Source: Nemertoderma westbladi
Lineage: Eukaryota; Animalia; Xenacoelomorpha
Reading direction: 5' to 3'
Assembly: GCA_032718475.1 (NCBI GenBank)
Contig: JAUCBJ010001547.1
Span: 1-32,129, forward strand
DNA length: 32,129 nt
Both the position numbers and the translations under genes were made by a program. How positions within the stretch are numbered: position 1 is the first letter of the stretch; each line of letters opens with the position of its first letter. Below, piece by piece: positions 1 to 32,129 of this stretch. A model generated the notes under the pieces. It had not been told where the DNA came from. It did not search any database and saw only the letters and a program-made list of their open reading frames with translations.

Positions 1-246
1 GCGCTAGAGAGTCGTCCCTCTAGCCTTCCAACTTCTTATATTATATCAAAAGGTTATATATATAATGATATCGTGTAATGAAACAATATAGGCCGTTAGG
101 TACCGGTAGGTATGTGACAGCAGTATATATATATGAACTCAATGTTGATCTAGTTGCTAGGAAACCCCCGCAGTTGCCACAGAGATCAACCAAGCAAAAA
201 CACGGGTTATCAGTGACCATTAGCCCCGAAGGGGCAGTCCGCTACA
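1..246 (-). repeat. 3' LTR of Gypsy element (truncated by window edge)
   Basis: Appears identical to 4141-4386; ends in GCTACA. Confidence 0.95.
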
Positions 247-250
247 CCAC

Positions 251-4071: not shown

Positions 4072-4111
4072 CGCGATCGTGACGTTGGTTGTTCCGGTTA
4101 TCGGGTGGTAG

Positions 4112-4132
4112 CAAATCTCGTCCGGGTCACCA
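4112..4132 (-). promoter_or_regulatory. Primer-binding site, tRNA-Trp-like
   Basis: TGGTGACCCGGACGAGATTTG starts 1 nt after the 5' LTR and closely matches the complement of the metazoan tRNA-Trp 3' end as recalled (TGGTGACCCCGACGTGATTTG). Confidence 0.85.
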
Positions 4133-4133
4133 A

Positions 4134-4386
4134 TGTGGGAGCGCTAGAGAGTCGTCCCTCTAGCCTTCCAACTTCTTATATTATATCAAAAGGTTATATA
4201 TATAATGATATCGTGTAATGAAACAATATAGGCCGTTAGGTACCGGTAGGTATGTGACAGCAGTATATATATATGAACTCAATGTTGATCTAGTTGCTAG
4301 GAAACCCCCGCAGTTGCCACAGAGATCAACCAAGCAAAAACACGGGTTATCAGTGACCATTAGCCCCGAAGGGGCAGTCCGCTACA
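4134..4386 (-). repeat. 5' LTR of Gypsy element, 253 bp, TG...CA
   Basis: TGTGGGA...GCTACA; direct repeat of 1-246. Confidence 0.95.
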
Positions 4387-4700
4387 GTATCTAGTAAAAT
4401 ATACACATTTTAGAGCAAAATTAAAATGTTGGCACGGGCGGAACTCTAGCCAAATTTTTATAAGCTATTTTTTCTCGATTAATTTATGATTATTAATGTT
4501 ACATTTCATTCATTTCATTCCCGGATTTGGCCCCGGTGGCTTTAATTGAATTAAAATGTTAAAACCAAATATATAAAACGTCACATGACCGGTACTATAA
4601 ATATTACAAAACATGACCGGTATATATAGACGATAAAATATTGCAAAACACATAAAACAGCAGAATATTATACTATACATACTTTGCTCTATCGATAGAA

Positions 4701-4869: not shown

Positions 4870-6248
4870 CTAAACTATTTGCCACCTGGGTTGAAAATAT
4901 TCAACTAACACGTCATGTTTTACGTTGAAATTATACTTGGGTTTATTTAAAACTACCTGCATATATAGTGCGTCAAAGTGAATGCTGAAACATGTGTTAA
5001 TTAAGTCGTGTTTTCCTTCCTGTTTTTTCTGATAAATGATCTGTTTAATTTTGTATTGATTAATTGAGAGTGCTTCTAGCGATGGAATTCCAAGTTGAAA
5101 TGCGTATCTGCTGTAATCTTGTAGCATTAAATCTTTCGATATTCCCGCTATGTGGTGAGAAAGGAAGTAATAAGAGAGATAGATCCCCTTGGTATTAGAA
5201 TTGAATGCGCTGTAATTAGAGCGAAGACTTGCTGACTTTAGAAGAAATTTGGAATGAGGAATGTACTATCTATTGTTTGGTTGGATACATAGTTTTTGAC
5301 AGATAGTATGCTTCTCAGTGCTTTATACCAGGTTATTTTAATATCTTCTATAATGTTACTTGGAATGCAAGCACATCCATAAAGTGCTGATGGTAAGCAG
5401 ACCGTATTCCATATCAGTCTAGTAATATCAAATGGAACATTGTCAGCTCCAAACCCATTCTTCTGTAATTGGTGCAGATTTCCCCATATGCGCTTGGTGT
5501 AATGGTCTCTTAACTTCCAGTTTTCTGCTGGTAGAGGAAGACCCAAGAAAGAAATAAAATTCGATTGAATGATAGCAGTGCCACTCTCCAAGTACACTTG
5601 TTCATCTTTACGTGGAATCATTCCAGATGGGATCTCAAGTTTCGTGTAGCTTGTGACAAACCATGTTTTTCTCAAATTTAATCTCAGGTTGTGCTTTTTG
5701 AAATAACTTTCACAAGTAGTTAGCAAGAACTGTGCGTCGTTTTTGAGGTTAGCCATAATAATTAAATCATCCGCATATGCTAGCATTGGAAATGATATTT
5801 TATTTAAGTGCAGTCCTTTCCCGGATTGTTCGAGTGCTTCGACTAGGTCTCGCATGTAAAAATTAAAGAGGAATGCAGAGATGATCCCTCCCTGGCGTAC
5901 TCCCTTCTTTAACACAATAGATTGTCTGGATATAATGTTATTCAGGGCTATAAATGCTTTTGACTGGTAGTAATAAGATGCTAAAGTTAAAAGGATTGAT
6001 TTGTCGATGTTGGTGTTCTCCAATTTGTCGAAGAGGGTCTTGTAAGATACAGTGTCAGAAGCTGATGAAAGGTCTAGGGATATAATATACACGTTTGATC
6101 CATGGGAATTGAAATGTTTTGTTAATCTGATTGCTAGGATGTATGGCAACTCTGTGCTTTGTCCACTTCTGTAGCCCATTTGAAGATCACTAAGTCTGAT
6201 CTTTTTTATTTCATTCACTATTAGTGATGTTATGTTACACAACATCAT
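4870..6248 (-). pseudogene. 5'-truncated non-LTR retrotransposon (LINE) reverse transcriptase; open 5238-6248, disrupted C-terminus to ~4870
   Basis: QMGYRSGQST, SLDLSSASDTV, KGVRQGGIISAFLF, LAYADDL, FLG motifs. Confidence 0.88.
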
Positions 6249-10799: not shown

Positions 10800-12700
10800 G
10801 GATTTAAAGCTGCCAAGTTGAAAATTTGTAGGTATCAATATGAGCAAAAGTTGAGATTTTTGAGAGACTTTCAGACACCATCAGTGCAATGGTCTCCCGC
10901 TAGAGGGCCACATGTCTAAACATTAAATGGCCACCCATTTCTTTGCTTTTAATCCGTTTAAGCTGAAACTTGGGAAGTATGTACTAGACCATTAGCTGTA
11001 AATTTCAAAGGAGGCTAATCTGTCTGCAGTTCTCCAGTCTACCGCTAGAGGGCGAAATGTCCCGAATGTGAAATTATTCTTCCATTTAGTTGTTTATGAT
11101 CTGATTACGCTGAAACTTGTCATATATGTACTAGATGACATCCTGAGTCTTTGTGTGGATTGTAATCGGTCCGAAGTTTTCCAGTCTCCCGCTAGAGGGC
11201 CACATGTCTAAACATTAAATGGCCACCCATTTCTTTGCTTTTAATCCGTTTAAGCTGAAACTTGGGAAGTATGTACTAGACCATTAGCTGTAAATTTCAA
11301 AGGAGGCTAATCTGTCTGCAGTTCTCCAGTCTGCCGCTAGAGGGCGAAATGTCCCGAATGTGAAATTATTCTTCCATTTAGTTGTTTATGATCTGATTAC
11401 GCTGAAACTTGTCATATATGTACTAGAAGACATCCTGAGTCTTTGTGTAGATTGTAATCGGTCCGAAGTTTTCCAGTCTCCCGCTAGAGGGCCACATGTC
11501 TAAACATTAAATGGCCACCCATTTCTTTGCTTTTAATCCGTTTAAGCTGAAACTTGGGAAGTATGTACTAGACCATTAGCTGTAAATTTCAAAGGAGGCT
11601 AATCTGTCTGCAGTTCTCCAGTCTACCGCTAGAGGGCGAAATGTCCCGAATGTGAAATTATTCTTCCATTTAGTTGTTTATGATCTGATTACGCTGAAAC
11701 TTGTCATATATGTACTAGATGACATCCTGAGTCTTTGTGTGGATTGTAATCGGTCCGAAGTTTTCCAGTCTCCCGCTAGAGGGCCACATGTCTAAACATT
11801 AAATGGCCACCCATTTCTTTGCTTTTAATCCGTTTAAGCTGAAACTTGGGAAGTATGTACTAGACCATTAGCTGTAAATTTCAAAGGAGGCTAATCTGTC
11901 TGCAGTTCTCCAGTCTGCCGCTAGAGGGCGAAATGTCCCGAATGTGAAATTATTCTTCCATTTAGTTGTTTATGATCTGATTACGCTGAAACTTGTCATA
12001 TATGTACTAGAAGACATCCTGAGTCTTTGTGTGGATTGTAATCGGTCCGAAGTTTTCCAGTCTCCCGCTAGAGGGCCACATGTCTAAACATTAAATGGCC
12101 ACCCATTTCTTTGCTTTTAATCCGTTTAAGCTGAAACTTGGGAAGTATGTACTAGACCATTAGCTGTAAATTTCAAAGGAGGCTAATCTGTCTGCAGTTC
12201 TCCAGTCTGCCGCTAGAGGGCGAAATGTCCCGAATGTGAAATTATTCTTCCATTTAGTTGTTTATGATCTGATTACGCTGAAACTTGTCATATATGTACT
12301 AGAAGACATCCTAAGTCTTTGTGTGGACAGTAATCGGTCCGGAGTTTTCGAGTCTGCCGCTAGAGGGCGAAATGTAGGAAAGTGATAACCTTTGCGAATT
12401 CCTTGATCTTAATCTATTTAAGCTGAATTTTGGAATATACAGTACCGGTATGTACTAGACCACATGCCTCGTCTTTGTGAGGAAGGTGATCGATCCGTAG
12501 TTCTTTAATATGCCGCTAGAGGGCTAAATGTATGAAAGTGAAAACCTTCCAACATTTCGTTATTTATGATCCGTCAATCGGAAACTTGGTAGATATGTAA
12601 TAGACCATATGATGTGGCTTTGTAGGGAAACTAATCCTTCCTTCTTCAGTTACCCAGTCTCCCGCTAGAGGGTTAACGTTTTCCGGGAAAATCTTCTCCT
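10800..12700. repeat. Tandem array: 292-bp higher-order dimer (145+147 bp monomers), about 5 near-identical dimers plus diverged edge monomers
   Basis: CCGCTAGAGGG at 10897, 11042, 11189, 11334, 11481, 11626, 11773, 11918, 12065, 12210, 12357, 12513, 12662. Confidence 0.95.
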
Positions 12701-14468: not shown

Positions 14469-15151
14469 TTACTTCTATAAAGTTATCAGGCAATACCCTG
14501 CCATTATTGAGAAGCTTTATTAATGACCATGTATTTTTGCCTTTTGGAATTAATATATTTTTTTTTATTTTCAGATATTTGGAATTGAATATCTCAACCC
14601 GTCGTTTTACACATCTACCTTTTACATCTGGTATCTAAATCTTGTTTTGGATCCTTTCGTATATTTCCTAACAAATGACAGATCAATAAAGTCGTTTGTA
14701 AGATTGGCAAATTGTATGAGACATAAGAAGTAGAATTGAAAATATGTTATTTATGTTATTTATATTTCAAACTAAACATGTCTACCCTTACCCAACCGAG
14801 TATTTATTTTTCTTTGTCAATTCGATCTATTATAAACGTAACCATAGCTAACCAAAGGAGATTTTGATGTCAAGGTAGAATCGAATGTTTGCAGCTCTAA
14901 AACTAAAATAATTTACATCCTTTTGGCCTGTTACTTGTTGTTGCCAATTAGTACAAAATTGTTAAAAATATTAATAAATTAAAATAGTAGTATGGTAATT
15001 TTTATCTAATACATAGAATTTATCGGTTTACGACATGATATTTCTCCACAGATCTAGAACATTTTTAGGAAAAATATTATCATACATCAGTAGTAAGACG
15101 AACCCCTTTTCTGCGACAGTTGGACCCACTTCGCACCTTAGGTGTTAAGTA

Positions 15152-16533
15152 TGTTGCCGTTATTCCCGACACCATGGGGGAAAACGCCGATGCTGGAGGC
15201 GGAACTTTTCAGACCACGGAATCCCGGCCAGTCACCGGATATTGGTAGTGGAGAAGGAATACGTTCTTAAATGCAAGATTGCGGTTGAGGAAACGTTTCA
15301 TTGGTTGGATATATTCTTTAATGTAGTTAATCTCACTGAACCCTGATTGAGAATAAATTGGGCTTCCCCAAACCAATATACACCAAATATTCGCAATAAT
15401 ATAACACGACAATATAAATCCCTACAGTATATTATTTAATTACCCACTGTTCGCTCAGATTTTAGCCTAACTAATGTTCCCCAATTTTCCCCCGGTCCTA
15501 GTCTCGGTACCGTAGTGTCGGTGTCGGTCGACCCTGTTGCGTGTCCGTCCCACCCTTCCCGAACCCCGAAGGGATCGGTCATCAGGAACCAGTACGGCTT
15601 GGCTAGGGGTCTGTCATGTTGGTGGACCCATTTGCGTGTCCGTCCCACCCTTCCCGAACCCCGAAGGGATCGGTCATCAGGAACCAGTATGGCTTGGCTA
15701 GGGGTCTGTCGGTTCATCGCAGGGACCCAACCACCTAGGCTTTCCGAGTCCTTATTCAGGCTCGTAGTCGCTTCGGCAGCCGAGAAGCTGCTCCGAACAG
15801 TCGGTAGGCCAGTAGAGTCCAGTCCTTTGTCTTTCGACCCCGTTGTGTGTCCGTCCCACCCTTCCTGAACCCCGAAGGGATCGGTCAGGAACCAGCACGG
15901 CTTGGCAAGGGGTCTGTCAGCCCATCGTGAGCCCCAACGGTTGGTGGTTTTCCGAGTCCTTATTCAGGCTCGTACTAACGCCGGTCGTGGAACCCACTTC
16001 AGGAAGGCAGTCCTCGTCGAACCCTTCCTCCGTTAGTCAGTCAACCCGTTCGTGTGTCCGTCCCACCCTTCCCGAACCCCGAAGGGATCGGTCAGGAACC
16101 AGTACGGCTTGGCTAGGGGTCTGTCGTCGGTTCCCGTCGCAAATCCCTGACACAAGCAGCAGACTTTCCGATGTCCTTTTCAGGCTCGTAATAACTGCTG
16201 TTGGCCAGGGACCGCTACGGGCAGTCCTTGTCCTTTAGACCTAGCGAGTTACCAAATCCACCTCTACAGGCAGGAGGAAGTTGGCTAGGCCTAATAGTAA
16301 TCAGGCAAACCTGAATACTGCTTAACTTTTCCTCCCACCCCTGGCCCTTAAATACATGAAATGAGTCCTGCACCCCGTAAGTCGCCCCAATATTCGCCCA
16401 TAAATCGCCCCCAGTCCATTGAATGTGCCCAAAACCCATGTTCCCGCACCCAGTAGTAATATCGGAATATTCATTTAAAATAAATCCAAAAAATATTCAA
16501 CTCGCGTTAGGAAAAGCTGAAATACCGCGAACA
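15152..16533 (-). repeat. 3' LTR of BEL element (1382 bp) with internal repeats
   Basis: Direct repeat of 27581-28959, a few percent diverged; four ~75-bp internal modules (starts ~15541, 15636, 15847, 16054). Confidence 0.95.
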
Positions 16534-16542
16534 GTCCCCCCC
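16534..16542 (-). promoter_or_regulatory. Polypurine tract
   Basis: GGGGGGGAC immediately before the 3' LTR on the minus strand. Confidence 0.75.
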
Positions 16543-16713
16543 AATGACCTTCGTGAGGTCTATCGGTAGATCGAGTTTGCGTAGGTCATTTCCCATATAA
16601 AAAACCCAAATTTTTAATATTGCATAGTCTTGATTAATTTGGCCTAGAGTTAGTTTATGTAAATATATCAAAATAAATGTTCGATATAAATGTTCCTGGA
16701 ATATCTTGGTCCT

Positions 16714-18342
16714 CTATTTCTTGCTCTGATACGCCTTTCTCCTCTTCGCCCGTCGACTCTTGTCGATCGCCAGTGCTGGTAGGGGAGCATCAACATCCAT
16801 CGTGAGCAACATTTCGGCTTGTCTCCTGGCAGCTCTTCCTTTCAATGGTAGCGGGATCATATCGGTTCGTCTTTCCAACTCGGTATTGCGTGCCTCTAGG
16901 AACCACTTTCCATCACCGAACCCTTCTTTATAGGAATATAAACGCCTAAGGATCTCGAATGGGCCGAATAATCCGGCGCTTAGCAACAGATCCACGTAAT
17001 GGAATGGTAACGTCGCTGTCGTATGGAGGCGTTCTGGGAAGGAAAAATACCCGCACGCCATTTCCTGCGCGATATTCCGAGCGTTTCTCCGTACTTTGGT
17101 CTTTATGTGGCTGTTTGCGTAGGTTTCGAACATAACCAGATTTCCCATAGCGGTAACGTCCTTTGTGGGACACTTTATATTGCAGCGGGGGCTAGCGGAA
17201 TGTCCACGGAAACCGCATGTTGTGCAGAGGTTATAGAGGGTTGGACAAACTGAAACATCATGTCCCGATGTCGCGCAGTAGGGACAATACAGTATCCCGA
17301 GGAGCTGGAGGCATGAATCGGTTACTCGGTTTCTTCTACCGCGTGGGCACTGCTCTGAACCGCAGTCTCCACATATCTCTAACTGCATCTCCCGGCCGAA
17401 GAATATCGGAATCGGGACGCCGACGTAATACTCGAGTCGTCGGTCGCTTTTTGGAATATTCGCTGTGGCCGGTAGCCCGCAAAAAGCTGTGCTTTGGCGT
17501 AGTACGTTCTCGTTTCGATAACCTTCTTTATGTCCTGCCGGTCTCATCTCGGATGACCGTTTCTGGCGGTGGATCCATTCGGTCTGCTCGGCATACCATC
17601 GGGTAAGTCGCATAGGATCCTGTGGAACGGAGGGGGTAGTCGCCACCGCTGGTTGGCGAAGAGGTGCCGGGGTTTTCGATGGAGGGATTCCGCGGAGATC
17701 TTCGGGAGTCGGTGCAGCGCTGGGACCCTTTTCAACCAGTATCGCTGAGCGGGTCCGTTGGGTGCTGGTACTCGGAATCTCCGAAGACCAGTCTTCGCCA
17801 CCCGGGAACGGATATGGGGATAACCTCTGACATATGTCGCCGAAGTCGTTCAATGCGAAGGTAGTGACTAACTCCCTCGCGGGGCTATCGGAGCCAAGTG
17901 GGGAGGAAACGCCTGCTTCCGTCGCAGGTTCGGCCGAGGCGACCCGTTTGGCGGCCGGTTCGTACGCGATTTCCGGATCGAGCTGTCGCTTTGGGGTGGA
18001 CAGTAAAATACCTTCCTGTAGCCATAATTCTTCCCCTTCCGAGGAAATCAGTGGTTCCTCCTCACCGAGGAGATCGGTAATTGTAGGGATGTCGAACGGC
18101 CCATTCTCGTCCCAGGAAGCGATGACGGTGAGCGTTTTCGTCTCTCCCGGTGTAATATTCTCGACCGCTTTGAACGCGTGGTTGATAACCTCGTTCCATT
18201 CGTAGTCGATAAAGGAATTAGGAACCGCCGTAATGAGGCTATCGAGAGTTTTACATATGAACTTAGCGACTGTGTAGGATTCCATAACGACGTAGATGTA
18301 GTTCCGTTGCCCCGGATCCTCCCACTTGTGGTGAATCGTCAC
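16714..18342 (-). CDS. Accessory ORF, C-terminal part: possible ExoIII motif, Pro/Ser-rich linker, tandem CCHC zinc knuckles, Arg/Lys-rich tail
   Basis: CPYCATSGHDVSVC (C-x2-C-x4-H-x4-C) and CTTCGFRGHSASPRC; GTG start overlaps the upstream ORF stop, so probably one frameshifted gene with 18339-19313. Confidence 0.7.
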   Translation of the reverse strand: MTIHHKWEDPGQRNYIYVVMESYTVAKFICKTLDSLITAVPNSFIDYEWNEVINHAFKAVENITPGETKTLTVIASWDENGPFDIPTITDLLGEEEPLISSEGEELWLQEGILLSTPKRQLDPEIAYEPAAKRVASAEPATEAGVSSPLGSDSPARELVTTFALNDFGDICQRLSPYPFPGGEDWSSEIPSTSTQRTRSAILVEKGPSAAPTPEDLRGIPPSKTPAPLRQPAVATTPSVPQDPMRLTRWYAEQTEWIHRQKRSSEMRPAGHKEGYRNENVLRQSTAFCGLPATANIPKSDRRLEYYVGVPIPIFFGREMQLEICGDCGSEQCPRGRRNRVTDSCLQLLGILYCPYCATSGHDVSVCPTLYNLCTTCGFRGHSASPRCNIKCPTKDVTAMGNLVMFETYANSHIKTKVRRNARNIAQEMACGYFSFPERLHTTATLPFHYVDLLLSAGLFGPFEILRRLYSYKEGFGDGKWFLEARNTELERRTDMIPLPLKGRAARRQAEMLLTMDVDAPLPALAIDKSRRAKRRKAYQSKK

Positions 18343-19313
18343 TTTCTTTCAACATCCTTCCAGCGACTCTCTCGCTCACTCTTTATTTCTAATCCCAGGT
18401 ATCCGCCATATATCTTATTATAGTCCTGGAATTTCTGGGGTTTAAAGTCTATGCCGCCGTTTAGCACTGCGAGGTAGCCAATGCCGGATTTCGTCCGTCT
18501 CACCTCTCGGAATCCTCGCAGGAATTCGGCGGATCGTAACCAGGCTAATAGAGTTTGGGTGTCGACACAATGACTAATGGCGTTGAGATCTTCTCGACGG
18601 TCTCTTCCGAAAGGTGCGTTCGCGTAGTTGTTTCGGACGTCCGCCTTTATATCTGACCCGATTTTAATGATGTCGAAGTCGAATAGGATCTTTTGGATCT
18701 CGGGTGGTAGTAGCCAGATCACTCCGGCTGTCCGCACCTCCTGTCTGGGTGTCGGAAATATTCGACATACCAACACCAAACCGTCCAGGTTTCCGAGGAC
18801 GACGACCAAGGATCGACCGTATTCTTTCGTCCCGTACTTCTCCTGGTAGTCGTCGCGATTCTGGATAACTGATATACGTTCCTCTCGCAGCGTTGCCGTA
18901 CACTCCGCTAGGTTTCCCCAGTGGGCGAGGTACGTACTCTTGTCGTCGACGAAACTTTGACATCGCACCAACGTAATCGCTTTCGAGGTGGGCATCGCGT
19001 TTCCCTCGTTGTCGTATATCAAACATCGGGATTTGTAGACGCTTTGCCGGAACGTTTCCCAGTACGACAACTCGTCCCCTCCAGTTGCCTTTGCGTTCCG
19101 AGTTCTTTTCAGTCTCGTACTAGCATCGGACAACTGGAGGTCTTGTAGATTCCGGGAATCCGGTCCCTCTCGCCCGGAGAATTTGACGACTCGCACATTC
19201 TCATTTATCAGGGCGTTCCATTTTGTATCAAAGTTAGGGGATCCAGGTTGTGGATATTCCAGTAAATCTATCGTATTACATAGTTCGCCGATAATTTGGT
19301 GATTTGGGTCCAT
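18339..19313 (-). CDS. Accessory ORF, N-terminal part: predicted DEDDy (WRN/EXD2/RNase D-like) 3'-5' exonuclease
   Basis: ExoI-like LIYDNEG; ExoII-like LPPEIQKILFDFDIIKIGSDIKADV; then CVDTQTL and KSGIGYLA in the family-typical order. Confidence 0.65.
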   Translation of the reverse strand: MDPNHQIIGELCNTIDLLEYPQPGSPNFDTKWNALINENVRVVKFSGREGPDSRNLQDLQLSDASTRLKRTRNAKATGGDELSYWETFRQSVYKSRCLIYDNEGNAMPTSKAITLVRCQSFVDDKSTYLAHWGNLAECTATLREERISVIQNRDDYQEKYGTKEYGRSLVVVLGNLDGLVLVCRIFPTPRQEVRTAGVIWLLPPEIQKILFDFDIIKIGSDIKADVRNNYANAPFGRDRREDLNAISHCVDTQTLLAWLRSAEFLRGFREVRRTKSGIGYLAVLNGGIDFKPQKFQDYNKIYGGYLGLEIKSERESRWKDVERK

Positions 19314-19869
19314 ATTTTCGATTATGTTCGTTGCAAATTTACATCAGTTAATTATAAATCCAGAAAGTCTGATACTATAGTGACTGCAGAATAATTCAGT
19401 TTATTTGTAATTCAGTTTATTAAATAACATTGCTATATAGGCATCTACCATCTTATTGCTAATACATTCAGCATTTACAGTTACTATAGCTATACATTAA
19501 TATCCAACCAGTTTTGACTTTTTATGTCCTCTTCTTTTTCCAATTCTTTTCTTTCTACATTTTATACATTTTTTTGTCATTTTTAATTTCTCATTATTAT
19601 TTCATTTCACATTTCATCATTTATTTCCACCACTTCATCATTTATTTCCACATTTATTTCACATTTCATTTATTTCCATATCTTCATTGGGGTTATAGCC
19701 CCCCGGCTATCATCATTTGTTATAAGCGCAGCACCAGGGTGTGCATCATTACATTTTCATCATCATACGCGTCATCATTCAGTTTATAGTAAGGTTGTCT
19801 GTTTCTTTTCATCATTTCACCAAACTGCACACGTAACGGACAATGAAGACGCTGGAAGTGAAGTCACGT

Positions 19870-20160
19870 GGAATGCACCAGGGACCCACCAGAATAACAC
19901 TCCCAACAACATAAAGCTCAGCTGACGAAGTCATTTGGGATGGGGTTACGCAACATTCTGGGATCTACAGCTGGACTAGTTACACCGCCCTCGCCTCAAA
20001 ATCCACGCAACGGTCCCACCAGAATAACGCGACTGAGAAACATAAAACCTCTATCGACGAAGTCATGTGGATGCACCATGGACCCACCAGAATAACGGGA
20101 TAGAGGGGGCGTTGCGCGGCAATCCGGGATCTACAGCTGGACTAGTTACACCGCCTACGC
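19870..20160. repeat. Mosaic direct repeats between pol and the accessory ORF
   Basis: CCCACCAGAATAAC x3, GGGATCTACAGCTGGACTAGTTACACCGCC x2, GACGAAGTCAT x2. Confidence 0.8.
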
Positions 20161-20454
20161 CCCGAACTGCGCACGCAACGGACAACACAACATAATACAA
20201 TGGATACAATGAATTCCACTTCAAATCTTTACCATTTCCAATAATCCAATGTCGTTGGTCCCGATGACCACAATCAGGGTTAACAATACATTAACGACCC
20301 TGCGTCAGTCGAAACATCTGCAGGATGATGCTGGACTCCACATAACACACGAGGAAACACAAATACCATGCGTCGTTACAGTTGGTTTAAGGGGGTCCAT
20401 TTTCATTGTCGATAAATCACAGTTTAAAGAGTTTATCAACAGGATGAGAAGGGT

Positions 20455-23400
20455 TTAAACGGATTTAGCATTGTCACCAATGTCTGCAGCAGGATCCGGA
20501 GTAGGGAACTTATCACCTCTCGTGGAGTCACCGCTGTCATTGCCTTCAAGAAGGCACAGCCTCTGGATAGGGCGTTGGTAGTGGCCCTTTGCCGTTCGTA
20601 TCGTCACAGTCCTCGCAAGTCCGTCTTTACTCGGGTTTATTGCCACGACTCGCGCCACCGGCCAGTGGACACGGTCTTTGAGATCTTCCTTCACTAGCAC
20701 CATGTCGCCAACTGCGACATTCCTATAGGTGTTGTTCCACTTCCTCCTGGTCCGGAGGGTTATGAGATACTCTTGTGCCCATATTCTCCACCAATGCGCT
20801 GCCAATGCTTGGGCCTTCTTACAATTGGTATGTCTCGCGATATCGTTGGGATCCGGAAACATCGTCTCTGGAAGAATATGGGTTTTGGGTCTTCCAAAGT
20901 AGGTGGTTAGGAGTGAGAGGCTCCAGATCTGTGGGGTCGTCGCAGATAGGGACGATGGGCCGGTTGTTTAGGGTAGCCGTGATCTCGCAGAATGTTGTAC
21001 GGAGGGTGTTGTGGGTTACCCGGGTGTCTCCTAATGCGATGCGCATGGATCGTTTTACCAAGTCGATGAGCTTCTCCCATACCCTGCTCGTATGGGGTGC
21101 TAAGGTTGTTTGGAAGTGCCACTGTATATGGTGTTCCCTCCAGACTTGGGATGCGGTGTCCTCGGTAAACCATCCCTCGATCGCCTCTCTAAGTTCTCTT
21201 TCTCCTCCCACAAAGTTTGTGCCATTATCGGAGTACATATGACGACATGTTCCATTGTTCGCCACGAACCGACGCAGGTCGTTGATGAATGTGTGTTGCG
21301 TAAGGTTCACCACAATGTCTAGGTAGATTGCCCTAGACCTAAGGCAGGTAAAGATGGCTCCCCAGCATTTGATGTTGGATCGTCGCTCGATGACCGTGAA
21401 TGGTCCGAAACAGTCTACTCCGGTTACATAGAACGGTGGGGAATCGGACTGTAGACGTGTGGCTGGTAAGTCGGCCATCCTTTGTGTGAGTGGTGGCATT
21501 AGATATCTTCTGCAGGGAAAACAACGTTTTAACACTTTCCGGATCAGTGGCTGGATGTGGGTGATCCAATATCTTTGCCGTATATTAGCCATAATCCAGT
21601 TCTGTCCCGCGTGATGGTTTTCCTCGTGACACTGTTGGATTAATAGCTTGGCTAGTGTTGACGTTCCGGGCGGAAGCGCTGGGTATTTGACTTCGTATTC
21701 AACCGGGGCGTTTGCCATCCGGGTATTCAGTCGAATCAGTCCATCCTCTCCCATCATTGGTCTCAATTGGTAGACTGGACTGTCCGGTTTCAAGGTCTTG
21801 CCCGCATTGAGTTGTTCCCACTCATCGGGGAAACTTTCTCTCTGGACATAACTGACAATACACTTCTCTGCGATAATGAGTTCTTGTATACTTCGTTGAA
21901 CTATCGGTTTGTTGTCTTTCCACCGTAGGAAGTTGCGAAGGGTTATGACGTGGTGGATGAGACGTCTCATTGATGAAGTTCGCTCGATCAATAGTTGTAA
22001 AGACACCGCTGGTTGTGTGATCGTCGCGACGTTATAGTGCCTGCCCGAATCCTTTGCAGGCTCGGTCAGACAACTATAGATCTCCACTGTGGCGCTTCTA
22101 TGGACTTTGCGGATCTCCTTGTCGTCTTCGGAGTATTTTCCGCTATCGAGTTCGGGATCGAATCTGGTACTCCAGGTTAATTGTGGTTGCTGTAGGAATT
22201 CCGGACCGGTGAGCCAGAGTTTACTTTTACCGAGTTGTCGTGGGGTGGCGCCTCTACTCGATAAGTCCGCTGGATTTTCTTTCCCGTTTACATGGTGCCA
22301 CTGTTCTCGGCCGGTGCACTGTTTTATCTCCGTGGCTTGGTTCGCTACGAACGTGTTATGTCGCCGTGATGGTGAGTGGAGGTAGTAGAGAACGATACTC
22401 GAATCGACCCAGAAATGTTGCGATTCGATGTGGATTCGTAGGTTCCGCATGACCATCCGGTTCTGTCTCACTGCCCAAACTGCGGCCTGTAGCTCAAGTC
22501 TCGGAATCGTTGCTACGAATTCCCCGGATACTGTCTTAGCTTTAGAAAATAAGAAGCTCGTATCGCCGTTTCCATCTTGACTTAGTCTTCTTAGGAAAGT
22601 GACTACGCCGATTACGGTATTCGAAGCATCCGAGAAAGTGTGGAGCTGGAGGATATTGGTGGGTAGTTTATCGAGGAAGAACGGTCGAGGGATCCGCATA
22701 AGATGTAGATGTTCGAGTTGTTCCGTCCACTTTCTCCATTTGACACTGAGGTGTGGGGGGAGTTCTTCATCCCATCCCAGTCCTTCTATCCACATTTCCT
22801 TGATCAAATTCATTCCGGCCAAGGTTACCGGAGATATGAAGTTTAGTGGGTCGAATATTGCACTTTTTATAGACAAACATCCCCTTTTCGTCATGGGCTT
22901 GAGTAGGGGGTTATATTTGAAGATGAATTCATCCAATTCTATGTCCCATTCAATGCCGAGTACACGGTGATCCACATCCTCGGAATACATTTTATTGTTG
23001 CCCAGTCGGATTTCCTCCGGAAACTTTTCCATAAGTTTTTTGTCATGGGATCTGAACTTCACGAGGGGGAAACCTCCTCTCTTTAAACATTCCACCATCC
23101 CCATCACTAGCTGATATGCCTCGTCAACATTATCGGCACCGGCGCATCTGTCGTCCACGTAGAAGCATCTCGGATGGTTTCTATGACTGTTGGAGGGAAC
23201 TCGTTTTCGCACAGAGTCGCTGTTTTCTTCAGCATGTCACTACATGCTACCGGCGAGTCCTTAGCGCCGAAGATCCTGACGATCATGCCATTACGTCCAC
23301 AGCCTTCAATGTGAGTTGACTTATCTCCTGTGGAGTTAATGTTTTATCCATCCATAATATACGCAGACAGTCTGAGTCTCTTGGTAGCGTTCGGACCTGG

Positions 23401-24131
23401 TGAAACATCGCTTTGATGTCGCATGTGAATGCTATCCGGTTTTCCCTAAACCTGATCAACACGCCGATGAGTGTACTGTATATGTTGGGCCCTGTATAAA
23501 GTTGGCTGTTCAGGGATTCGCCTTGATACATAGCAGCGGCATCATTGACTACTCGGATTTTACTGCCCTTCCGGGCTTCTACCACATAGTGGGTTGGGAG
23601 ATAATATGTCCGTCTACCCCCTTGCAGTTCATTCCGGGGTACCATTTCCACAAATCCATCTTCTAGATATCCTTTGATTACATTATTATATTTCTCCTTT
23701 ATCTCGGGTTGGTCATTCAACCGGCGTAGGATTCCTTTGAGCCGCCTAAGGGCCATGTTGACATTATTTGCCATCGGTTTATCTGGGTCTTTCCATAGCA
23801 TGGGTGAACACCAATGTCCGTATTTGAATGTGGCCTGATCAAGGATGTCAATACAATATTGATCTTCCTCGGATGGGTTCTCGTCCTTTTCAGCAAACTC
23901 TCGGGTCTCTAGATTAAAGTATTTGGTCATCTCCTGCTGGGTTTTCTCGGTCTCAAGGAATAAATCCTCGTCCAGGTCTGTAGCTGAACAATAACCCACG
24001 GAGGTTGCATTCTCTTTAATCTGACATTTAGGGAGATATGTATAGGTGTCTGTAGTCTCCTCCTTGATGCCGCAGAGTGTCCATCCCATGATCGTACGTT
24101 CGGCATAAAAGCCGTCATCGTGCTTTACAGA
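20455..24131 (-). pseudogene. pol: BEL pol region (RT, RNase H, integrase, C-terminal domain) split by frameshifts (ORF pieces 23283-24089, 20819-23212, 20455-20862)
   Basis: KIRVVNDAAA, CDIKAMFHQV, IFGAKDSP (intervening frame), FYVDD, FSDAS, TIPRLELQAA, NPADLSSRG, H..HH..CFPC, GVDCFGP, SDNGTNFVG, LTPNHLL, WPVARV. Confidence 0.92.
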
Positions 24132-27100
24132 TCAGGCGACGTCTCCTGTGGGTATGTGTAATTCCGGTGTGTCGAGTCCGATCAATAAGGTGATGCAGTT
24201 CATGTCCAACGGTGGACATCTTAGGTCTACATCTTCCCGGTCTAACTGTATGAGAGGGGCGTATTCAGCTGATTGTCGGAACCGCACTCGGAGATCGGTG
24301 TGTACCAAGGCGTTCTTGATTGTCAGCTTGACTGTCTCGTAACCCTTCATGACTCCTTCCATCTGGAGCTGCACCTCCCCGGACTCTACTTCTCTATGGT
24401 CGGTGATAGTTTGTATGGGCCGTTTGCAAGGTTCGTAGTCTAGGCCGAGTTGTTCAAGGAAATCCCGGTCGATGATGGTTCCGTCCGACCCGTTATCAAG
24501 GAACGCGAGCGTTGTGAAGGATTTCCCGACCCATTGAATTCTTACTGGGATTACTTTGGCGAAGACCATGTAACGGCGATTTATAAGGTTGATCGTGGCC
24601 GAGATATTTGTCACTTGTGATACATCGGTGGAGGTCTTAAACGGGTTGGTTTCCCTCCGTTGAATCGTCCGGGTTCCTTTAGAGACGTGGTTCGTTTCTC
24701 CTCTTCGTTTGGCTTCGATCCGAAAGGGGAGGGTGGTAAAGTCGAAGTTCGCGGGGATGTGGAGGAGTGTGTGATGACGTAGGTCATTACAGACCGCACA
24801 GCACGATCTTTGGTCGCAATCCCGAACATAGTGACCTGTTCCAAGACACCGGAAGCATCCTCGGTGTTTCATTATCGCCTCGAAGCGTGGTGCGAGTTCG
24901 GCAAACTGGAACTTTCTGCAGAATTCCACCTTATGTTTCTCTCCGCAGAAGAGACAGAGAAGGGAGTTTGTGGTGCCTTCCCTTTCGGGTGCCCAATTCG
25001 CAAGATAACACGCCCATTCCTCGGCTGATGTCGGTTCCTCGTAGTCCTCGTCGTCAGAATCCTCGGCCATGGTGATAGCCATCGTACTCACCGGAGGGGG
25101 ACGGAATCTCGGTTTCTGAGTGGGTGTCCTGCTCCTGGAGTTGTTCTCTATTCCATCTAACTTGGCGAGACTTTGTTTGGAGAACATCGAGTCATTCATG
25201 GCTTCGGAGATATCATCCAGGAATGCCGACATTTCGAGGAAACTGGGATCTCGATCTGGGTGTCTGCGTCGGAGATCTACGCATTTATACGCCCACTTAC
25301 TTTGCAGCCATCCGGGGAACTTTCGGGCGATCTGTCGGAGGTTTAGAATGTTGTTTACTTGTTCCTCCTTATTTAATGGTTTTAGAGTGTAGTAGGCATC
25401 TTTCATGGAATCCGAGAACTCCTGGATATTCTGTGGGTCCCCTAGGGATCCCGCGTCCTGTATCAGTTTCTCGAGAGTTTTATTAAATATAGTCCCGGTA
25501 TTTCCGTATCTTTTGTCTAGAGTTTTCCATGCATCATAGTATGCTTCATGAGCTCCTCCCTCAAAACATGCAATGATTCGGCGTGGTTTGTCGCCCAGGT
25601 ATTGGGATAAATATACCAGTTTTTGTGTGTCGGCTATATCCGTTGACCCAATCTGAGTGAAGAACCGTTTATTGAATCTGAGGTAATCGACGGGGTCTCC
25701 TTCGAAGGTGCGGATCTCCATCTTGGGCATGGCCAGGCGGTTTTCCAATGCCCGGATAATGCCGACGTCATCTGAACTGGAATGACTAGGAGGGTTATAG
25801 TTATTGGCACTCTCTCCCATGCACGATGGATCGATGAGAGGTAGAGTTTTAATGATGACGCAGTTACGGATTTGTGGTGTGGATGTAAACGGGTTGTTGG
25901 ATCGAGGGGTGGCGTCCCGTTCCGAGTCCTTTTCAGGCTCGTACTTGGGAACGCTCGGGACCGTGGGGTTGGCTGGGAAATAAGGTTCCTCATTCTTAAG
26001 CGTAACCGGTGGGGGATGGAATACCGGTGCTTGTGCCGATAACGTAGACTGTATGGTTGGCGGGAACTCGGGTTTCGGAGGTTTCGCCGCTGGTGGCGTA
26101 AATGACTTCTCTAATTCCGGGACCGGGATTGGTTCATAGTTCTGTTCTATACCCCTTTCCCAGTCCTCATATAGTTGAAGATCCCGTTCTATGATTGCGG
26201 CTTCGTATTCCGCAAGTTTCCCAATATCCGCATTCTTTTTATGGATGAGAATCGCTTGGGCCTCGGCATGTTGTTTACGCATTTCTGCCTCCAGTTTACG
26301 TTGTTCGGCCTCCTGTTCGGCCTGTCGTTCGGCCTCTCGTCTACGTTGTTCGGCCTCCTGTTCGGCCTCTCATTTACATTGTTCGGCCTCCTGTTTGGCC
26401 TCTCGTTCACGTTGTTCGGCCTGTCGTTCGGCCTCTCATCTACGTTGTTCGGCCTGTTGTTCGGCCTCTCGTCTACGTTGTTCGGCCTGTTGTTTGGCCT
26501 CTCGTTTTTGCATTTCGGCTGCTAATACATCTTGCTCGACTCGCAGTTGAACATATTCATCTTCCATCCGAGCTTTGAGGGCCAATGCCCTCTGTTCTCG
26601 TAGCTGATCTCGGAGTGGCTGACCCCCTTGAGAACTGCGTGCTGAACCGAACATCTCGCTCCTAGCGCTGGAGTGCTGGTGCCTCCCGGACCCCGTTCTC
26701 TTTCGATAAATTGCTGTCCTGGTGCTGGAGGTTCGCACCGATTCTGCGTCTGTTCTTTCAGTTCTCTTATAGTACTGTTCCTCGTAGCCTCTCACGAGGC
26801 TGAGGGTCCTCCGGTGTTGTTTGCGGAACTCATCTAGATGTACAACGTGTTCTTCTAGTCTGGGGTAGTTTACCTGATCGGTGGCTGGGATGAGTTCTTG
26901 ATATGCCTGTATCATTCTCTCATATCGTTGTAAGATACTTCGGATGTTCTGTAGCTGAGTTTGTATCTCGTTGAGGGGGGGTTTCGACTCCCTTGAGTTG
27001 TTTCTCTATACGTTGATACGCTCGAGTGACTCCGCCTTTGAGAGCGCCTAGTCGACGGGTCATGTTCTTTACGTTCGGTACCTCGTCGGCTTCCGAGTCT

Positions 27101-27147
27101 GTGTGGTGGTCCATCTCATCGGTATCGGAGACGTTGTTCGTCGTCAT
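24132..27147 (-). pseudogene. gag: BEL gag-protease region split by frameshifts (pieces 26920-27147, 26436-26915, 24132-26282)
   Basis: FEGDPVDY capsid-like motif; CLFCGEKHKVEFC, CFRCLGTGHYVRDC, CAVCNDLRHHTLLH; protease FLDNGSD. Confidence 0.92.
26290..26510 (-). repeat. Coding tandem repeat in Gag coiled-coil (EAEQQAEQRR-type units)
   Basis: Repeated TGTTCGGCCT units. Confidence 0.85.
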
Positions 27148-27335: not shown

Positions 27336-27580
27336 TCCCTGTTAACGACTCTCTATATGTGATCCGCCGACTACGAGTTTATTAGTTCGAGTTTGTCGAT
27401 TGATTAAACCACGGCTTTGTCTTAACTCAAATACCAGAGTTTCCTCGTAGTGGGTACTGGGTAAGCACGGAGAGAGTTTGAAGAGTATTGTAGGATTCCC
27501 AACTTCCACCAGTCGAAGTTGGCTGCGTCTTATTCTCAATTCTGACAGCCTGTCAAAATTGACTCCCTTATTCTCAATTC

Positions 27581-28959
27581 TGTTGCCGTTATTCCCGACA
27601 CCATGGGGGAAAATGCCGATGCTGGAGGCGGAACTTTTCAGACCATGGAATCTCGGCCAGTCACCGGATATTGGTAGTGGAGAAGGAATACGTTCTTAAA
27701 TGCAAGATTGCGGTTGAGGAAAAGTTTCATTGGTTGGATATACTCTTTAATGTAACTTCCCTACAGTTGAACCTTGATTGAGAATAAGTTGGGCTTCCCC
27801 AAACCAATATACACCAAATATTCACAATAATATAACACGACAATATAAATCCCTACAGTATATTATTTAATTACCCACTGTTCACTCAGATTTTAGCCTA
27901 ACTAATGTTCCCCAATTTTCCCCCGGTCCTAGTCTCAGTACCGTAGTGTCGTTGTCGGTCGACCCTGTTGTGTGTCCGTCCCACCCTTCCCGAACCCCGA
28001 AGGGATTGGTCATCAGGAACCAGTACGGCTTGGCTAGGGGTCTGTCATGTCGGTGGACCCATTTGCGTGTCCGTCTCACCCTTCCCGAACCCCGAAGGGA
28101 TCGGTCATCAGGAACCAGTACGGCTTGGCTAGGGGTCCGTCGGTTCATCGCAGGGACCCAACCACCTAGGCTTTCTGAGTCGTTATTCAGGCTCGTAGTC
28201 GCTTCGGCAGCCGAGAAGCTGCTCCGAACAGTCGGTAGGCCAGTAGAGTCCTTTGTCTTTCGACCCCGTTGCGTGTCCGTCCCACCCTTCCCGAACCCCG
28301 AAGGGATCGGTCAGGAACCAGTACGGCTTGGCAAGGGGTCTGTCAGCCCGTCGTGAGCCCCAACGGTTGGTGGTTTTCCGAGTCCTTATTCAGGGACGTA
28401 CTAACGCTGGTCGTGGATCCCACTTCAGGAAGGCAGTCCTCGTCGAACCCTTCCTCCGTTAGTCAGTCGACCAGTTCGCGTGTCCATCCCACCCTTCCCG
28501 AACCCCGAAGGGATCGGTCAGGAACCAGTACGGCTTGGCTAGGGGTCTGTCGTCGGTTCCCATCGCAAATCCCTGACACAAGCAGCTTTCTTTCCGATGT
28601 CCTTTTCAGGCTCGTAATAACTGCTGTTGGCCAGGGACCGCTAAGGGCAGTCCTTGTCCTTTAGACCTAGCGAGTTACCAAATCCACCTCTACAGGCAGC
28701 AGGAAGTTGGCTAGGCCTAATAGTAATCAGGCAAACCTGAATACTGCTTAACTTTTCCTCCCACCCCTGGCCCTTAAATACATGAAATGAGTCCCGTACC
28801 CCGTAAGTCACCCCAATATTTGCCCATAAATCGCCCCCAGTCCATTGATTATGCCCAAAACCCATGTTCCCGCACCCAGTAGTAATATCGGAATATTCAT
28901 TTAAGATAAATCCAAAAAATATTCAACTCGCGTTAGGAAAAGTTGAAATACCGCAAACA
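27581..28959 (-). repeat. 5' LTR of BEL element (1379 bp)
   Basis: Direct repeat of 15152-16533; candidate TATA (TATTTAAG, ~28773-28780 minus) and ATTAAA (~27746-27751 minus). Confidence 0.95.
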
Positions 28960-28968
28960 AAGTAGGTC

Positions 28969-29026: not shown

Positions 29027-29558
29027 AGATCGATTTGTATCAAATAATGTTGCCGGCTTTAATTTGACACAAATCAATCAGATAGGGGACGCGCGATGAA
29101 TAGATTGTACTACAGTAGGGCTTGCCTTGGTATGTTGCCATGGTAGCCTTCAGCTTCGTTATCATGTAAGATTGGAAACCTTAGGTTTACATCTTACGCG
29201 CCAGCATTCCCTCAATCGCACATAGACCAACTACAACCATTAATTACCACACATACGAGCCCATATGTTAAATTAATCCTCAACCATTTCTATACTAGAT
29301 ACTGTAGTTTTATGTACCATACGACCATTGTCAAATCCCCTGAGAAATTACAATAAACATCTGGTTTACAATAGATTATTCTTCTTTCACAACTCCATTC
29401 TAGCCTCCCTCTATAATAGCCCCCATTCACCGCATTCCCATTCATTCTCTAATTTTTATTGTTAAAAGTTTTATTTATTTTCATAAAAGTTTTATTTATT
29501 TAAAATTTTGTAAAATCATTCAGCGAAAATTCATAATATCAATTGACATTGCTATATA

Positions 29559-30611
29559 ATGCATAGAGATGAAAGATGTTTGGTTTGTAATAAAGAAATG
29601 AGACAAGACAATCTATCTCGTCATATGGAAAGACATAGAAAGGATAAACTAATGGATCCATTACCAAAGAAATTTAAAAAATCCGAAGATATTTTTAATG
29701 AAGATGAAAAGAAAAAGAGAGTTGAGCGTGATATATTAAAGATAAAACAGACAATGGAAAATAAATTTCATAAAGTTATGAATATTTTGAAAGGGATACA
29801 AAAACAGTTACCCCTAGAAAATGATGAAAATTTGAGTGAGGAAGATGAAGAAGAAGAGGACGATGAGATGGAGAATGAAAATAGTGAGGGTCAGGATGAA
29901 GTTGAAGAGAGTGAGGTTGAGAACGAAGTGAGTGAAGGTCAGGAAGAGGACGAAGAAAGTGAAGGTCAGGAAGAGGGTGAAGAAAGCGAAGGTCAGGAAG
30001 AGAATGAAGAAAGTGAAGAACAGGAAGAGGATGAAGAAAGTGAAGAACAGGAAGAGGATGACGAAAGTGAAGGTCAGAAAGAGGATGAAGAAAGTGAAGG
30101 TCAGGAAGAGGACGAAGAAAGTGAAGGTCAGGAAAGTGAAGAAGATGATGAAAATGATAATAATAAGGAAATATTGAGACAATTACTTGGAAATAAGAAT
30201 AAATTGCGGAAAATTATTAAACATTTGAAGGAAAATGAAGAAAATAAAGAGGTGACATTGACCCAAGTTCTAGGAAGTAAAATTAAATTACAGAAATTTA
30301 TTAAACATTTAGAAGAGAATGATGAAAATAAAGAAGAGATATTGAGACAAATATTAGGAAACAAAAATCAAATGCGGAAATTTATTAAACAAATGGAAGA
30401 AAATGAGGAAAATAGAGAAGAGATATTAAGACAGGTTCTGGGAAATAAAAGTAAATTACTGAAAATTAATGAACAATTGAATAAAATTAAGAAACAGTTG
30501 GTTAATGAGGAAGATGAAAGTAAAGAAAATCAACCAGCTTTTACTTATTTTCGAAGACCTATGATAAAAAACTCTCGTACAGTATATGCCCGCGCAGGAG
30601 GACACTATTGA
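29559..30611 (+). CDS. Intronless 350-aa protein: N-terminal C2H2-like zinc finger, acidic 9-aa repeats, four 27-aa helical repeats; possibly Polinton/virus-associated
   Basis: CLVCNKEMRQDNLSRHMERH; (EESEGQEED)n; (NKEILRQLLGNKNKLRKIIKHLKENEE)x4; TATAATAG at ~29413 upstream. Confidence 0.7.
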   Translation: MHRDERCLVCNKEMRQDNLSRHMERHRKDKLMDPLPKKFKKSEDIFNEDEKKKRVERDILKIKQTMENKFHKVMNILKGIQKQLPLENDENLSEEDEEEEDDEMENENSEGQDEVEESEVENEVSEGQEEDEESEGQEEGEESEGQEENEESEEQEEDEESEEQEEDDESEGQKEDEESEGQEEDEESEGQESEEDDENDNNKEILRQLLGNKNKLRKIIKHLKENEENKEVTLTQVLGSKIKLQKFIKHLEENDENKEEILRQILGNKNQMRKFIKQMEENEENREEILRQVLGNKSKLLKINEQLNKIKKQLVNEEDESKENQPAFTYFRRPMIKNSRTVYARAGGHY

Positions 30612-30637
30612 CATTTGTTTGTTTGAGTTCCTTTCAT

Positions 30638-30765
30638 AATAGTATTAGGACTATTTATCCATAACAATTATATTAGTATTAGGAGTATTTATCCTTAATT
30701 ATTATATTAGTATTATAAATGTATTTGCCAACAATATTTATTACTATTAGGTCTATTTATTCAAG
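30638..30765. repeat. Degenerate ~33-bp minisatellite
   Basis: Recurrent TAGTATTAGGA.TATTTATCC. Confidence 0.6.
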
Positions 30766-31081
30766 AAATTATATGTTTTTTATAATATATTTTGGAAAAT
30801 TAGTCGACTAAGTCATAATTTTTAAAACTTTAAATAAGGGTTGAGTTATTTTATAAAGTTAAGAAGAGTGAATCAATGGAGGCAACCTGAAGTCTAATCT
30901 CTTGCCCTTTACTCATAAGACCGCACATTAACTCCCAAGGTTGCATACTATCACTATAGCTGGGAGAGTCAAAGCTAGTGTACACTAGATTCAGCCTAGA
31001 GCTAGGAAAAAGAATAATGCTCTTCTAGGGTTCGAACCTATTGCTGACCGAGGCCTATTGCTGACCGAACGAAAACTGTCC

Positions 31082-31154
31082 TGGTTCATGCAGGGATCGA
31101 ACCCATGACATGCGGGAGATGTGAATTCAACGCAACCACTACACCAAGGTGAAA
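31082..31154 (-). pseudogene. tRNA-derived sequence (pseudo-tRNA or SINE head); a second B-box remnant at ~31017-31040
   Basis: Minus strand has A-box TGGTGTAGTGG and B-box GGTTCGATCCC at tRNA-like spacing; no clean cloverleaf. Confidence 0.55.
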
Positions 31155-31213
31155 CAGTAACCTTCGAATTTGTTCGTTGACGTTCGGATTTGTAAGACTT
31201 TCATTTAAGACCT

Positions 31214-32019
31214 GACACAGACTATGCCTCACTGAGGCATAGACTATGCCTCACTGAGGCACTGAGGCAAGACTATGCACTGAGGCACTGAGGCATAGAC
31301 TATGACTCACTGAGGCATAGACTATGCCTCACTGAGGCACTGAGGCACAGACTATGCCTCACTGAGGCATAGACTATGCCTCACTGAGGCAGACTATGCC
31401 TCAGAGCATAGACTATGCCTCACTGAGGCACTGAGGCATAGACTATGCCTCACTGAGGCATAGACTATGCCTCACTGAGGCACTGAGGCACTGAGGCATA
31501 GACTATGCCTCACTGAGGCATAGACTATGCCTCACTGAGGCATAGACTATGCCTCACTGAGGCACTGAGGCATAGACTATGCCTCACTGAGGCATAGACT
31601 ATGACTCACTGAAGCATAGACTATGCCTCACTGAAGCACAGAGGCACAGACTATGACTCACTGAGGCATAGACTATGCCTCACTGAGGCACTGAGGCATA
31701 GACTATGCCTCACTGAGGCACTGAGGCATAGACTATGACTCACTGAGGCATAGACTATGCCTCACTGAGGCACTGAGGCACAGACTATGCCTCACTGAGG
31801 CATAGACTATGCCTCACTGAGGCATTGAGGCATAGACTATGCCTCACCGAGGAATAGACTATGCCTCACTGATGCACTGAGGCATAGACTATGACTCACT
31901 GAGGCATAGACTATGCCTCACTGAAGCACTAAGGCATAGACTATGACTCACTGAGGCATAGACTAGGCCTCACTGAGGCACTGAGGCATAGACTATGCCT
32001 CATTGAGGCATAGACTATG
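31214..32019. repeat. 22-bp palindromic minisatellite (ACTGAGGCATAGACTATGCCTC)n with interspersed 8-bp ACTGAGGC subunits
   Basis: Directly visible, about 30 units. Confidence 0.95.
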
Positions 32020-32129
32020 TGCATATTGGTGAATCTGAGGCAAGTCACTAGACTAGCCTCAGTAAACACCCTAAAACTCGGGTCCCCAATGCGACAAGGT
32101 GAGCTGACTGCCTTGGCAGATAAGCTTTC

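Follow-up and report, generated by a model that had tools for sequence, protein, structure and literature searches.

We examined a stretch of 32,129 nucleotides from the xenacoelomorph Nemertoderma westbladi (GenBank assembly GCA_032718475.1, contig JAUCBJ010001547.1; hereafter the window), which carries on its minus strand, from 28959 to 15152, a complete long terminal repeat (LTR) retrotransposon with a third gene in the slot that envelope (env) genes can occupy. The 5' LTR (27581..28959, minus strand; 1379 nt, TG...CA) and the 3' LTR aligned to it (15152..16533, minus strand; 1382 nt) are 95.7% identical, with a Kimura two-parameter distance of 0.039 and three gap events. The same five bases stand at both element flanks as 5-bp target-site duplications (15147..15151 on the left and 28960..28964 on the right), and a G-rich polypurine tract (PPT; 16534..16542, minus strand) directly precedes the 3' LTR. 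We found no canonical TGG primer-binding site after the 5' LTR (27525-27580), where a stretch of about 13 nt occurs twice instead.

Between the LTRs, a broken gag-pol (20455..27146, minus strand) encodes DUF1759, three gag knuckles, an aspartic protease, a reverse transcriptase (YVDD), Peptidase_A17, an integrase zinc finger and DUF5641. Its order of gag, protease, reverse transcriptase, RNase H region and integrase is that of BEL/Pao elements, and its gag ends in a His-rich knuckle, the third of three, a three-knuckle arrangement that is itself a BEL/Pao feature. Because the Pao-specific Pfam domains PF05380 (E 1e-38), PF03564 (E 1.1e-13) and PF18701 (E 8.1e-29) are all present, we assign the element to BEL/Pao, as an initial annotation of this DNA had done; the LTRs, the target-site duplication and the PPT agree with that assignment. 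By our reading gag-pol has accumulated four frameshifts and three stops in 6.7 kb, and the window's copy of the element is dead, although one or two of these lesions could be programmed rather than products of decay. We found no related locus in viral, metagenome and prokaryote collections, which hardly cover animals.

Two repeat features of the element deserve mention in their own right. Each LTR contains four copies of a unit of about 95 nt with a hairpin (15522-16128 and 27953-28554). We considered whether these repeats hold a ribozyme and rejected the idea, having found no Rfam match above E 1.1 and folding z scores of -0.9 to 0.6 relative to shuffled sequences. Within gag, a 33-nt tandem repeat (26269-26544, minus strand) encodes a charged, probably coiled-coil product, and two of the element's stops fall inside it.

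The third-gene slot, between the end of pol (about 20455) and the PPT, is occupied by two open reading frames (ORFs) on the element strand. ORF-A (18339..19313, minus strand; 324 aa from an ATG) comprises an N-terminal extension and most of a predicted DEDDy-type exonuclease domain, while ORF-B (16714..18348, minus strand; 544 codons from stop to stop) comprises a candidate ExoIII helix, a linker, zinc knuckles, a post-knuckle segment and a basic tail. ORF-B starts with GTG, not ATG, with 542 codons counted from that GTG and a stop two codons upstream of it. The 1.1-kb spacer between pol and ORF-A (19314..20454, minus strand) has a GC content of 0.25-0.28 near ORF-A and contains two 59-nt direct repeats; 13 ATGs lie in its last 300 nt, and expression of the third gene would require its own or a spliced transcript.

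Some BEL/Pao (Belpaoviridae) elements carry env in the third position, and we therefore considered that identity for the gene. We rejected it, in agreement with the initial annotation, on finding no anchor-like segment and no env family match in Pfam. The peak 19-residue hydropathy was 1.93 for ORF-A and 1.22 for ORF-B, and the ORF-A peak corresponds in alignment to a core beta-hairpin of the exonuclease fold; the hydropathy scan revealed no membrane anchor in either frame, no signal-peptide predictor having been run. Compared with env-bearing BEL/Pao elements, then, the backbone and the pol-PPT slot are the same, but the cargo here is a predicted soluble nucleic-acid-binding protein instead of a fusion glycoprotein.

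Neither ORF had a significant match in Pfam, NCBIfam or PHROGs, and ORF-A had none among PDB sequences. Word-index protein searches likewise yielded nothing for ORF-A (0 of 1081 candidates) or ORF-B (0 of 7995). A HMMER scan over 1.84 billion representative proteins returned three matches, two of which (P0001 and P0003) we dropped as repeat proteins (fn3, PKD). The third, P0002 (E 3.8e-6), was the sole true relative, and a distant one: a protein of 648 aa encoded by a single ORF and the only member of its cluster. P0002 retrieved only itself among 7994 candidates in the word-index search, gave only chance matches in tblastn against phages and plasmids, and had nothing below E 0.008 in 301 bacterial genomes, where the best match overlapped a response regulator on the opposite strand.

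In pairwise comparison the N-terminal part of P0002 matched ORF-A (28% over 159 columns, E 8e-16), and its C-terminal part matched the knuckles and following segment of ORF-B (32% over 139, E 7e-12). The second match emerged although P0002 had been retrieved without ORF-B as the query. Because both frames match P0002 in order, they are most likely the two halves of one gene, as the initial annotation had proposed, and a comparison of the sequences suggests that this gene most likely runs from a nuclease-like domain through a linker, knuckles and a conserved segment to a basic tail. The low-complexity linker (17419..18126, minus strand) is 47% P/S/T/E/A and has no match in P0002. The knuckle region (17182..17373, minus strand) contains two canonical CCHC knuckles, at ORF-B residues 355 and 375, and a degenerate third at about residue 326 that is canonical in P0002; the P0002 knuckles match HIV-1 nucleocapsid and Air2 in PDB. 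We rejected the notion that the knuckles were copied from the element's own gag, since 583 of 2000 shuffles scored as well. The post-knuckle segment (16909..17163, minus strand) is conserved with P0002, its score being reached by 0 of 2000 shuffles, and the tail (16717..16908, minus strand; 27% K/R) may possibly act as a nuclear signal or an RNA contact.

Why a gene that is continuous in its relative should be split here can be explained in two ways. The split may be post-insertion decay of the window's copy, an explanation towards which we lean: at the rate seen in gag-pol, decay would leave 1.55 frameshifts in a stretch of 2.6 kb, so that one in the third gene is expected. Alternatively, the two-ORF layout may be conserved and regulated, in which case recoding, stop-restart or splicing would yield a truncated protein and, in smaller amounts, the full-length one. 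At the junction (18339..18351, minus strand), where the frames are offset, only 7 nt separate the upstream off-frame stop from the ORF-A stop, whereas at the four frameshifts in gag-pol this distance is about 58 to 146 nt; both frames are otherwise free of stops. Off-frame stops 8 nt or less apart occur at only 0 to 1.7% of random positions; so close a spacing seldom results from a random frameshift and speaks against plain decay. However, the junction has no canonical slippery heptamer and no stable downstream structure (z -0.36), ORF-B begins with GTG, the break sits within the nuclease domain, and P0002 is one continuous ORF. The junction is also a short A-rich repeat, at which slippage would be expected. 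We consider a regulated split the less probable of the two explanations. Sibling copies were uninformative on this point: among the 12 of 87 indels listed, none fell at the junction, and the pol frameshift near 20900 was missing as well.

We mapped contigs from four sequencing runs in three studies to positions 15100-21000, obtaining 7230, 4959, 3834 and 197 contigs, numbers that reflect depth and not copy number; one of the four runs may be the window's own source. Contigs covered 30 of 30 bins in every one of the four runs. The third gene is therefore family cargo present in many copies, and the claim that it was not a one-off capture held. One contig, at about 83% identity, includes the ORF-B start as well as the knuckle region. 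In three of the four runs there were also contigs of a deletion form in which 16147 is joined to 19093; what it lacks comprises the beginning of the 3' LTR, the PPT and the greater part of the third gene.

Presence in many copies need not mean that the gene is useful, and we considered whether it might be a captured host gene, carried along to no benefit and decaying as a passenger. The broken state of the window's copy and the recurrent deletion form would fit such a history, as would the rotifer ORF3s discussed below, for which the available part of PMC5408684 reports no clear departure from neutrality. Against it, long open frames persist in the third gene beside a gag-pol with seven lesions, the variant at about 83% identity retains the ORF-B start and the knuckle region on one contig, base composition resembles that of pol, and the protein searches made found no close host relative. 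Variants among the sibling copies point the same way. Six of the eight substitutions common to several copies were synonymous, against an expected share of 0.34 (P 0.02), while only 3 of the 16 changes private to the window's copy were, as decay predicts; the two synonymous shares differed (Fisher P 0.02). The synonymous excess among common variants gives a hint of purifying selection on the gene, and we regard a useless passenger as very unlikely.

To what fold does the cargo domain belong? The initial annotation had recognized a DEDDy pattern of the WRN/EXD2/RNase D type, and its motifs lie where it placed them: D101 and E103, LPPEI at 202, KIG at 217, D225, VDTQ at 250 and SGIGYLA at 276 of ORF-A, and W..YVVME at the start of ORF-B. 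The Pfam gathering threshold for PF01612 was missed, with P0002 scoring 11.9 bits against the required 23.6 and ORF-A having no match. We built a PF01612 profile from 51 bacterial exonucleases and compared scores with 1000 shuffles: ORF-A reached 9.0 bits against 5.0 for the best shuffle, and P0002 reached 5.7 against 3.4. The sole part with a significant profile match was the ExoII region LPPEI...KIG...D225...VDTQ (18555..18710, minus strand), in which D225 aligns to the invariant Asp of the profile. ESM Atlas features provided leads: ORF-A resembled Werner-like exonuclease clusters at 0.92, its recognition score of 2102 lying under the tool's mark of 2300, and P0002 resembled a PF01612 plus zf-CCHC cluster, mostly from Euglenozoa, at 0.86.

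An AlphaFold model of P0002 residues 1-286, made from an alignment that combined ORF-A 78-305 with 46 of the 51 bacterial sequences, the latter truncated ahead of ExoIII, had a mean predicted local distance difference test (pLDDT) score of 65.7. Foldseek placed 68 DEDD exonuclease chains at E up to 0.001, among them Egalitarian, EXD2, Trypanosoma brucei RNase D, Exd1, Nibbler and RICE1. In VIA the best chain had Z 11.9 (root-mean-square deviation [rmsd] 4.4, 159 aligned) and 33 chains had Z 8 or more, and a viral structure library returned the same fold class. We conclude that the cargo domain very probably has a DEDDy fold of the WRN/EXD2/RNase D-like kind. The claim of a DEDDy fold with two CCHC knuckles was thus supported by the profile scores and the knuckles at 355 and 375, although not by a Pfam match.

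Whether such a domain could cut depends on its acidic residues, and here the window's protein and its relative appear to differ. P0002 keeps D62, E64, D130, Y229 and E233, its D62/E64 pair giving the top ExoI score (16.4). In the structural range shared with epsilon (1j53), P0002 D62, E64 and E233 fall on residues 12, 14 and 167 if no gap intervenes, positions that we take to be catalytic. The ends of two other structural ranges place P0002 248 on mouse WRN 225 (2e6l) and 249 on Klenow 517 (1d9d), and because of these range ends, assuming no gap between, Y229 is placed on mouse WRN Y206 and Klenow Y497, which the accessible part of PMC6648332 gives as catalytic tyrosines. The ExoIII region lies outside the bacterial alignment rows of the model. 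Judging from the model, a D-E-D-E site complete with its tyrosine is most likely present in P0002.

In ORF-A two registers compete for ExoI. The first, D101-x-E103 (19005..19013, minus strand), retains acidic residues and demands an insertion of about 50 residues after it; the second, Q151-x-R153 (18855..18863, minus strand), gives the compact strand-helix-strand order and lacks them. Without gaps, no position of ORF-A matches P0002 ExoI better than D101 (13 versus -3 for position 151), and on a bacterial helix-plus-ExoI block the two nearly tie (6.8 for D101 versus 6.5 for 151). Once gaps are charged, however, anchored alignments favored position 151, in all six settings when P0002 was the partner and, of 50 bacterial rows, in 33 to 50; MAFFT also placed ExoI at Q151/R153. 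Residue 107, which aids the compact register, is a change private to the window's copy. An internal duplication behind the two registers was rejected, since 1666 of 2000 shuffles were as good. From these alignments we think it somewhat probable that ExoI is dead in the window's lineage and the pocket catalytically impaired, and D101/E103, as proposed in the initial annotation, is the less parsimonious assignment for ExoI.

The candidate ExoIII of ORF-B, W9...Y19-x3-E23 (18280..18324, minus strand), is colinear with W218...Y229-x3-E233 of P0002, both having E where the DEDDy pattern is Y-x3-D, which agrees with its placement at the ORF-B start in the initial annotation. The likeness is confined to the motif, as 1381 of 2000 shuffles scored as well as ORF-B 1-75 did against P0002. 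A second possibility, put forward in the initial annotation, is that the window's protein is an active 3'-5' exonuclease, with ExoI at D101/E103 followed by the insertion of about 50 residues, ExoII at D225 and ExoIII at Y19/E23 of ORF-B, acting on host small RNAs or on the element's RNA, primer or cDNA ends. D225 and the Y-x3-E motif are present, P0002 has the full residue set, and the available part of PMC5451212 describes RICE1 as active with Glu in the last motif position, though without metal. Set against the ungapped preference for D101, the gapped and MAFFT alignments that pick position 151 make this rather unlikely.

What might a pocket of this kind do when joined to zinc knuckles? T. 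brucei RNase D (TbRND; PDB 7c42) likewise places tandem CCHC knuckles after a DEDDy exonuclease domain, and the P0002 model compares with its structure at Z 10.7 (rmsd 4.8, 184 aligned). According to the available text of PMC7797062, TbRND is a cellular enzyme of the mitochondrion in which the linker measures 28 residues and the knuckles number four, and its knuckles confer RNA binding and strongly raise the trimming of U-rich 3' ends. The protein considered here has instead two or three knuckles, a linker of over 200 residues and an extra post-knuckle segment. The sequence match to TbRND covers the knuckles only and is not significant (E 8.8), and the likeness is probably convergent. By analogy with the trypanosome enzyme, it seems likely that the knuckles take hold of single-stranded RNA and guide its 3' end into the exonuclease pocket. 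In the window's lineage, where the pocket may be impaired, RNA would be bound and shielded or sequestered uncut, whereas P0002-like members would trim 3' ends.

The weakest step is the identity of the target. WRN exonuclease, EXD2, Nibbler/Mut-7, Exd1, Egalitarian and RICE1 have the fold class and the ExoII signature in common with the cargo (10 to 19% identity in structural rows); several of them act on small RNAs or bind RNA uncut, and none is element-encoded. Because the near folds Nibbler, Exd1, RICE1 and Egalitarian serve small-RNA or RNA-transport pathways, and because weaker silencing benefits a selfish element, we favor counter-silencing, in which the target would be the host small-RNA pathway and the silencing of the element would be weakened. 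That the target is this pathway, and not the element's own RNA, is a tentative proposal. Alternatively, the protein could act as an adaptor that helps to transport, package or localize the element's own RNA, like the inactive DEDD derivatives Egalitarian and Exd1. Egalitarian-BicD-RNA structures, one with the I-factor localization signal, stand among the top Foldseek rows, the compact register implies a dead pocket, and the knuckles resemble nucleocapsid fingers. But little separates the ranks in Foldseek, the alignment biases the model, Egalitarian ranks 19 in the wider search (Z 9.9), and the element's gag already has three knuckles, so that we regard an adaptor as unlikely. Less likely still is a suppressor of silencing by PIWI-interacting or small interfering RNAs that exists in active and pseudo-enzyme forms by lineage, possibly with a regulated split.

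Taken together, our results are consistent with a BEL/Pao family whose env-slot gene encodes a predicted DEDDy domain and knuckles, in a product that would likely bind single-stranded RNA 3' ends and likely interfere with small-RNA silencing of the element, a reading that draws on analogy and to which we assign a probability of about 0.5. Several observations weigh against it. With a first, smaller profile of 19 sequences, 1 of 1000 shuffles of P0002 beat P0002 itself (12.6 versus 7.6 bits), and the profile-profile probability was only 56%. The fold was modelled for the relative P0002, not for the window's own protein; a prediction for ORF-A from two alignment rows only had a pLDDT of 32.7 and gave no usable model. 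Because DEDDy proteins were in the alignment, the ExoI/ExoII likeness of the P0002 model is partly circular. A profile of the ExoIII motif found nothing significant in ORF-A, ORF-B or P0002. P0002 sits on a 9449-nt contig, and the window's element is the one BEL-linked example in this analysis. Finally, the variant comparison used 24 ORF substitutions among the 40 variants listed of 1023, with a cut-off set post hoc.

Elsewhere in the window, at 1-4395 (minus strand), lies a young Ty3/gypsy-type LTR element whose 255-nt LTRs are 99% identical and which has a TGG-starting primer site; its gag occupies a frame of its own, and its pol is unbroken over 1066 codons. A non-LTR-type reverse transcriptase fragment (RVT_1, E 7e-28) occupies 4870-6248 (minus strand), followed at 10892-12375 by a tandem array of five copies, 98% alike, of a 292-nt unit composed of two subunits of about 146 nt, with a recurring GC-rich core motif. 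Beyond the BEL/Pao element, 29547-32030 contains a frame of 354 codons that begins with a weakly C2H2-like part and carries 84-nt repeats as well as acidic 27-nt repeats; a compound 22/8-nt tandem array comes after it.

The rotifer elements Juno and Vesta belong to the Ty3/gypsy type, unlike the BEL/Pao host described here. DEDDy ORF3s have been described in these two LTR retrotransposons of bdelloid rotifers and are common to Terminons, according to the available portions of PMC5408684 and PMC6431247. As in our element, Juno and Vesta have a non-envelope third ORF downstream of pol with an RNase D-like DEDDy domain and no membrane segment, and the same candidate roles were proposed for it, as far as the accessible text of PMC5408684 goes. 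That text gives their motif as DEED, whereas here ExoII is D and the last position E, with D-E-D-E in P0002, and ExoI may be lost in the window's protein. It also describes a Cys-His-Cys motif in two of the rotifer ORFs, and its available part mentions no tandem CCHC knuckles. The cargo had initially been taken as non-standard for BEL elements, and the literature searched yielded no report of an exonuclease ORF in any BEL/Pao element, a search that excluded most subscription journals, Repbase and GyDB; the published rotifer ORFs nonetheless mean that DEDDy third genes as such are not new (PMC5408684). What is new is the extension of predicted DEDDy cargo from rotifer elements to another superfamily and a high-copy family, together with a putative RNA-gripping knuckle module.

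The role of non-envelope third ORFs in LTR retrotransposons is left open in the available text of PMC5408684. A natural intact relative with the predicted catalytic residues, combined with a solved cellular analogue, makes that role testable. Should the cargo prove to suppress silencing, transposons would have in it a concrete weapon for their arms race with hosts, and the protein would be an anti-silencing factor of known fold encoded by an animal retrotransposon.

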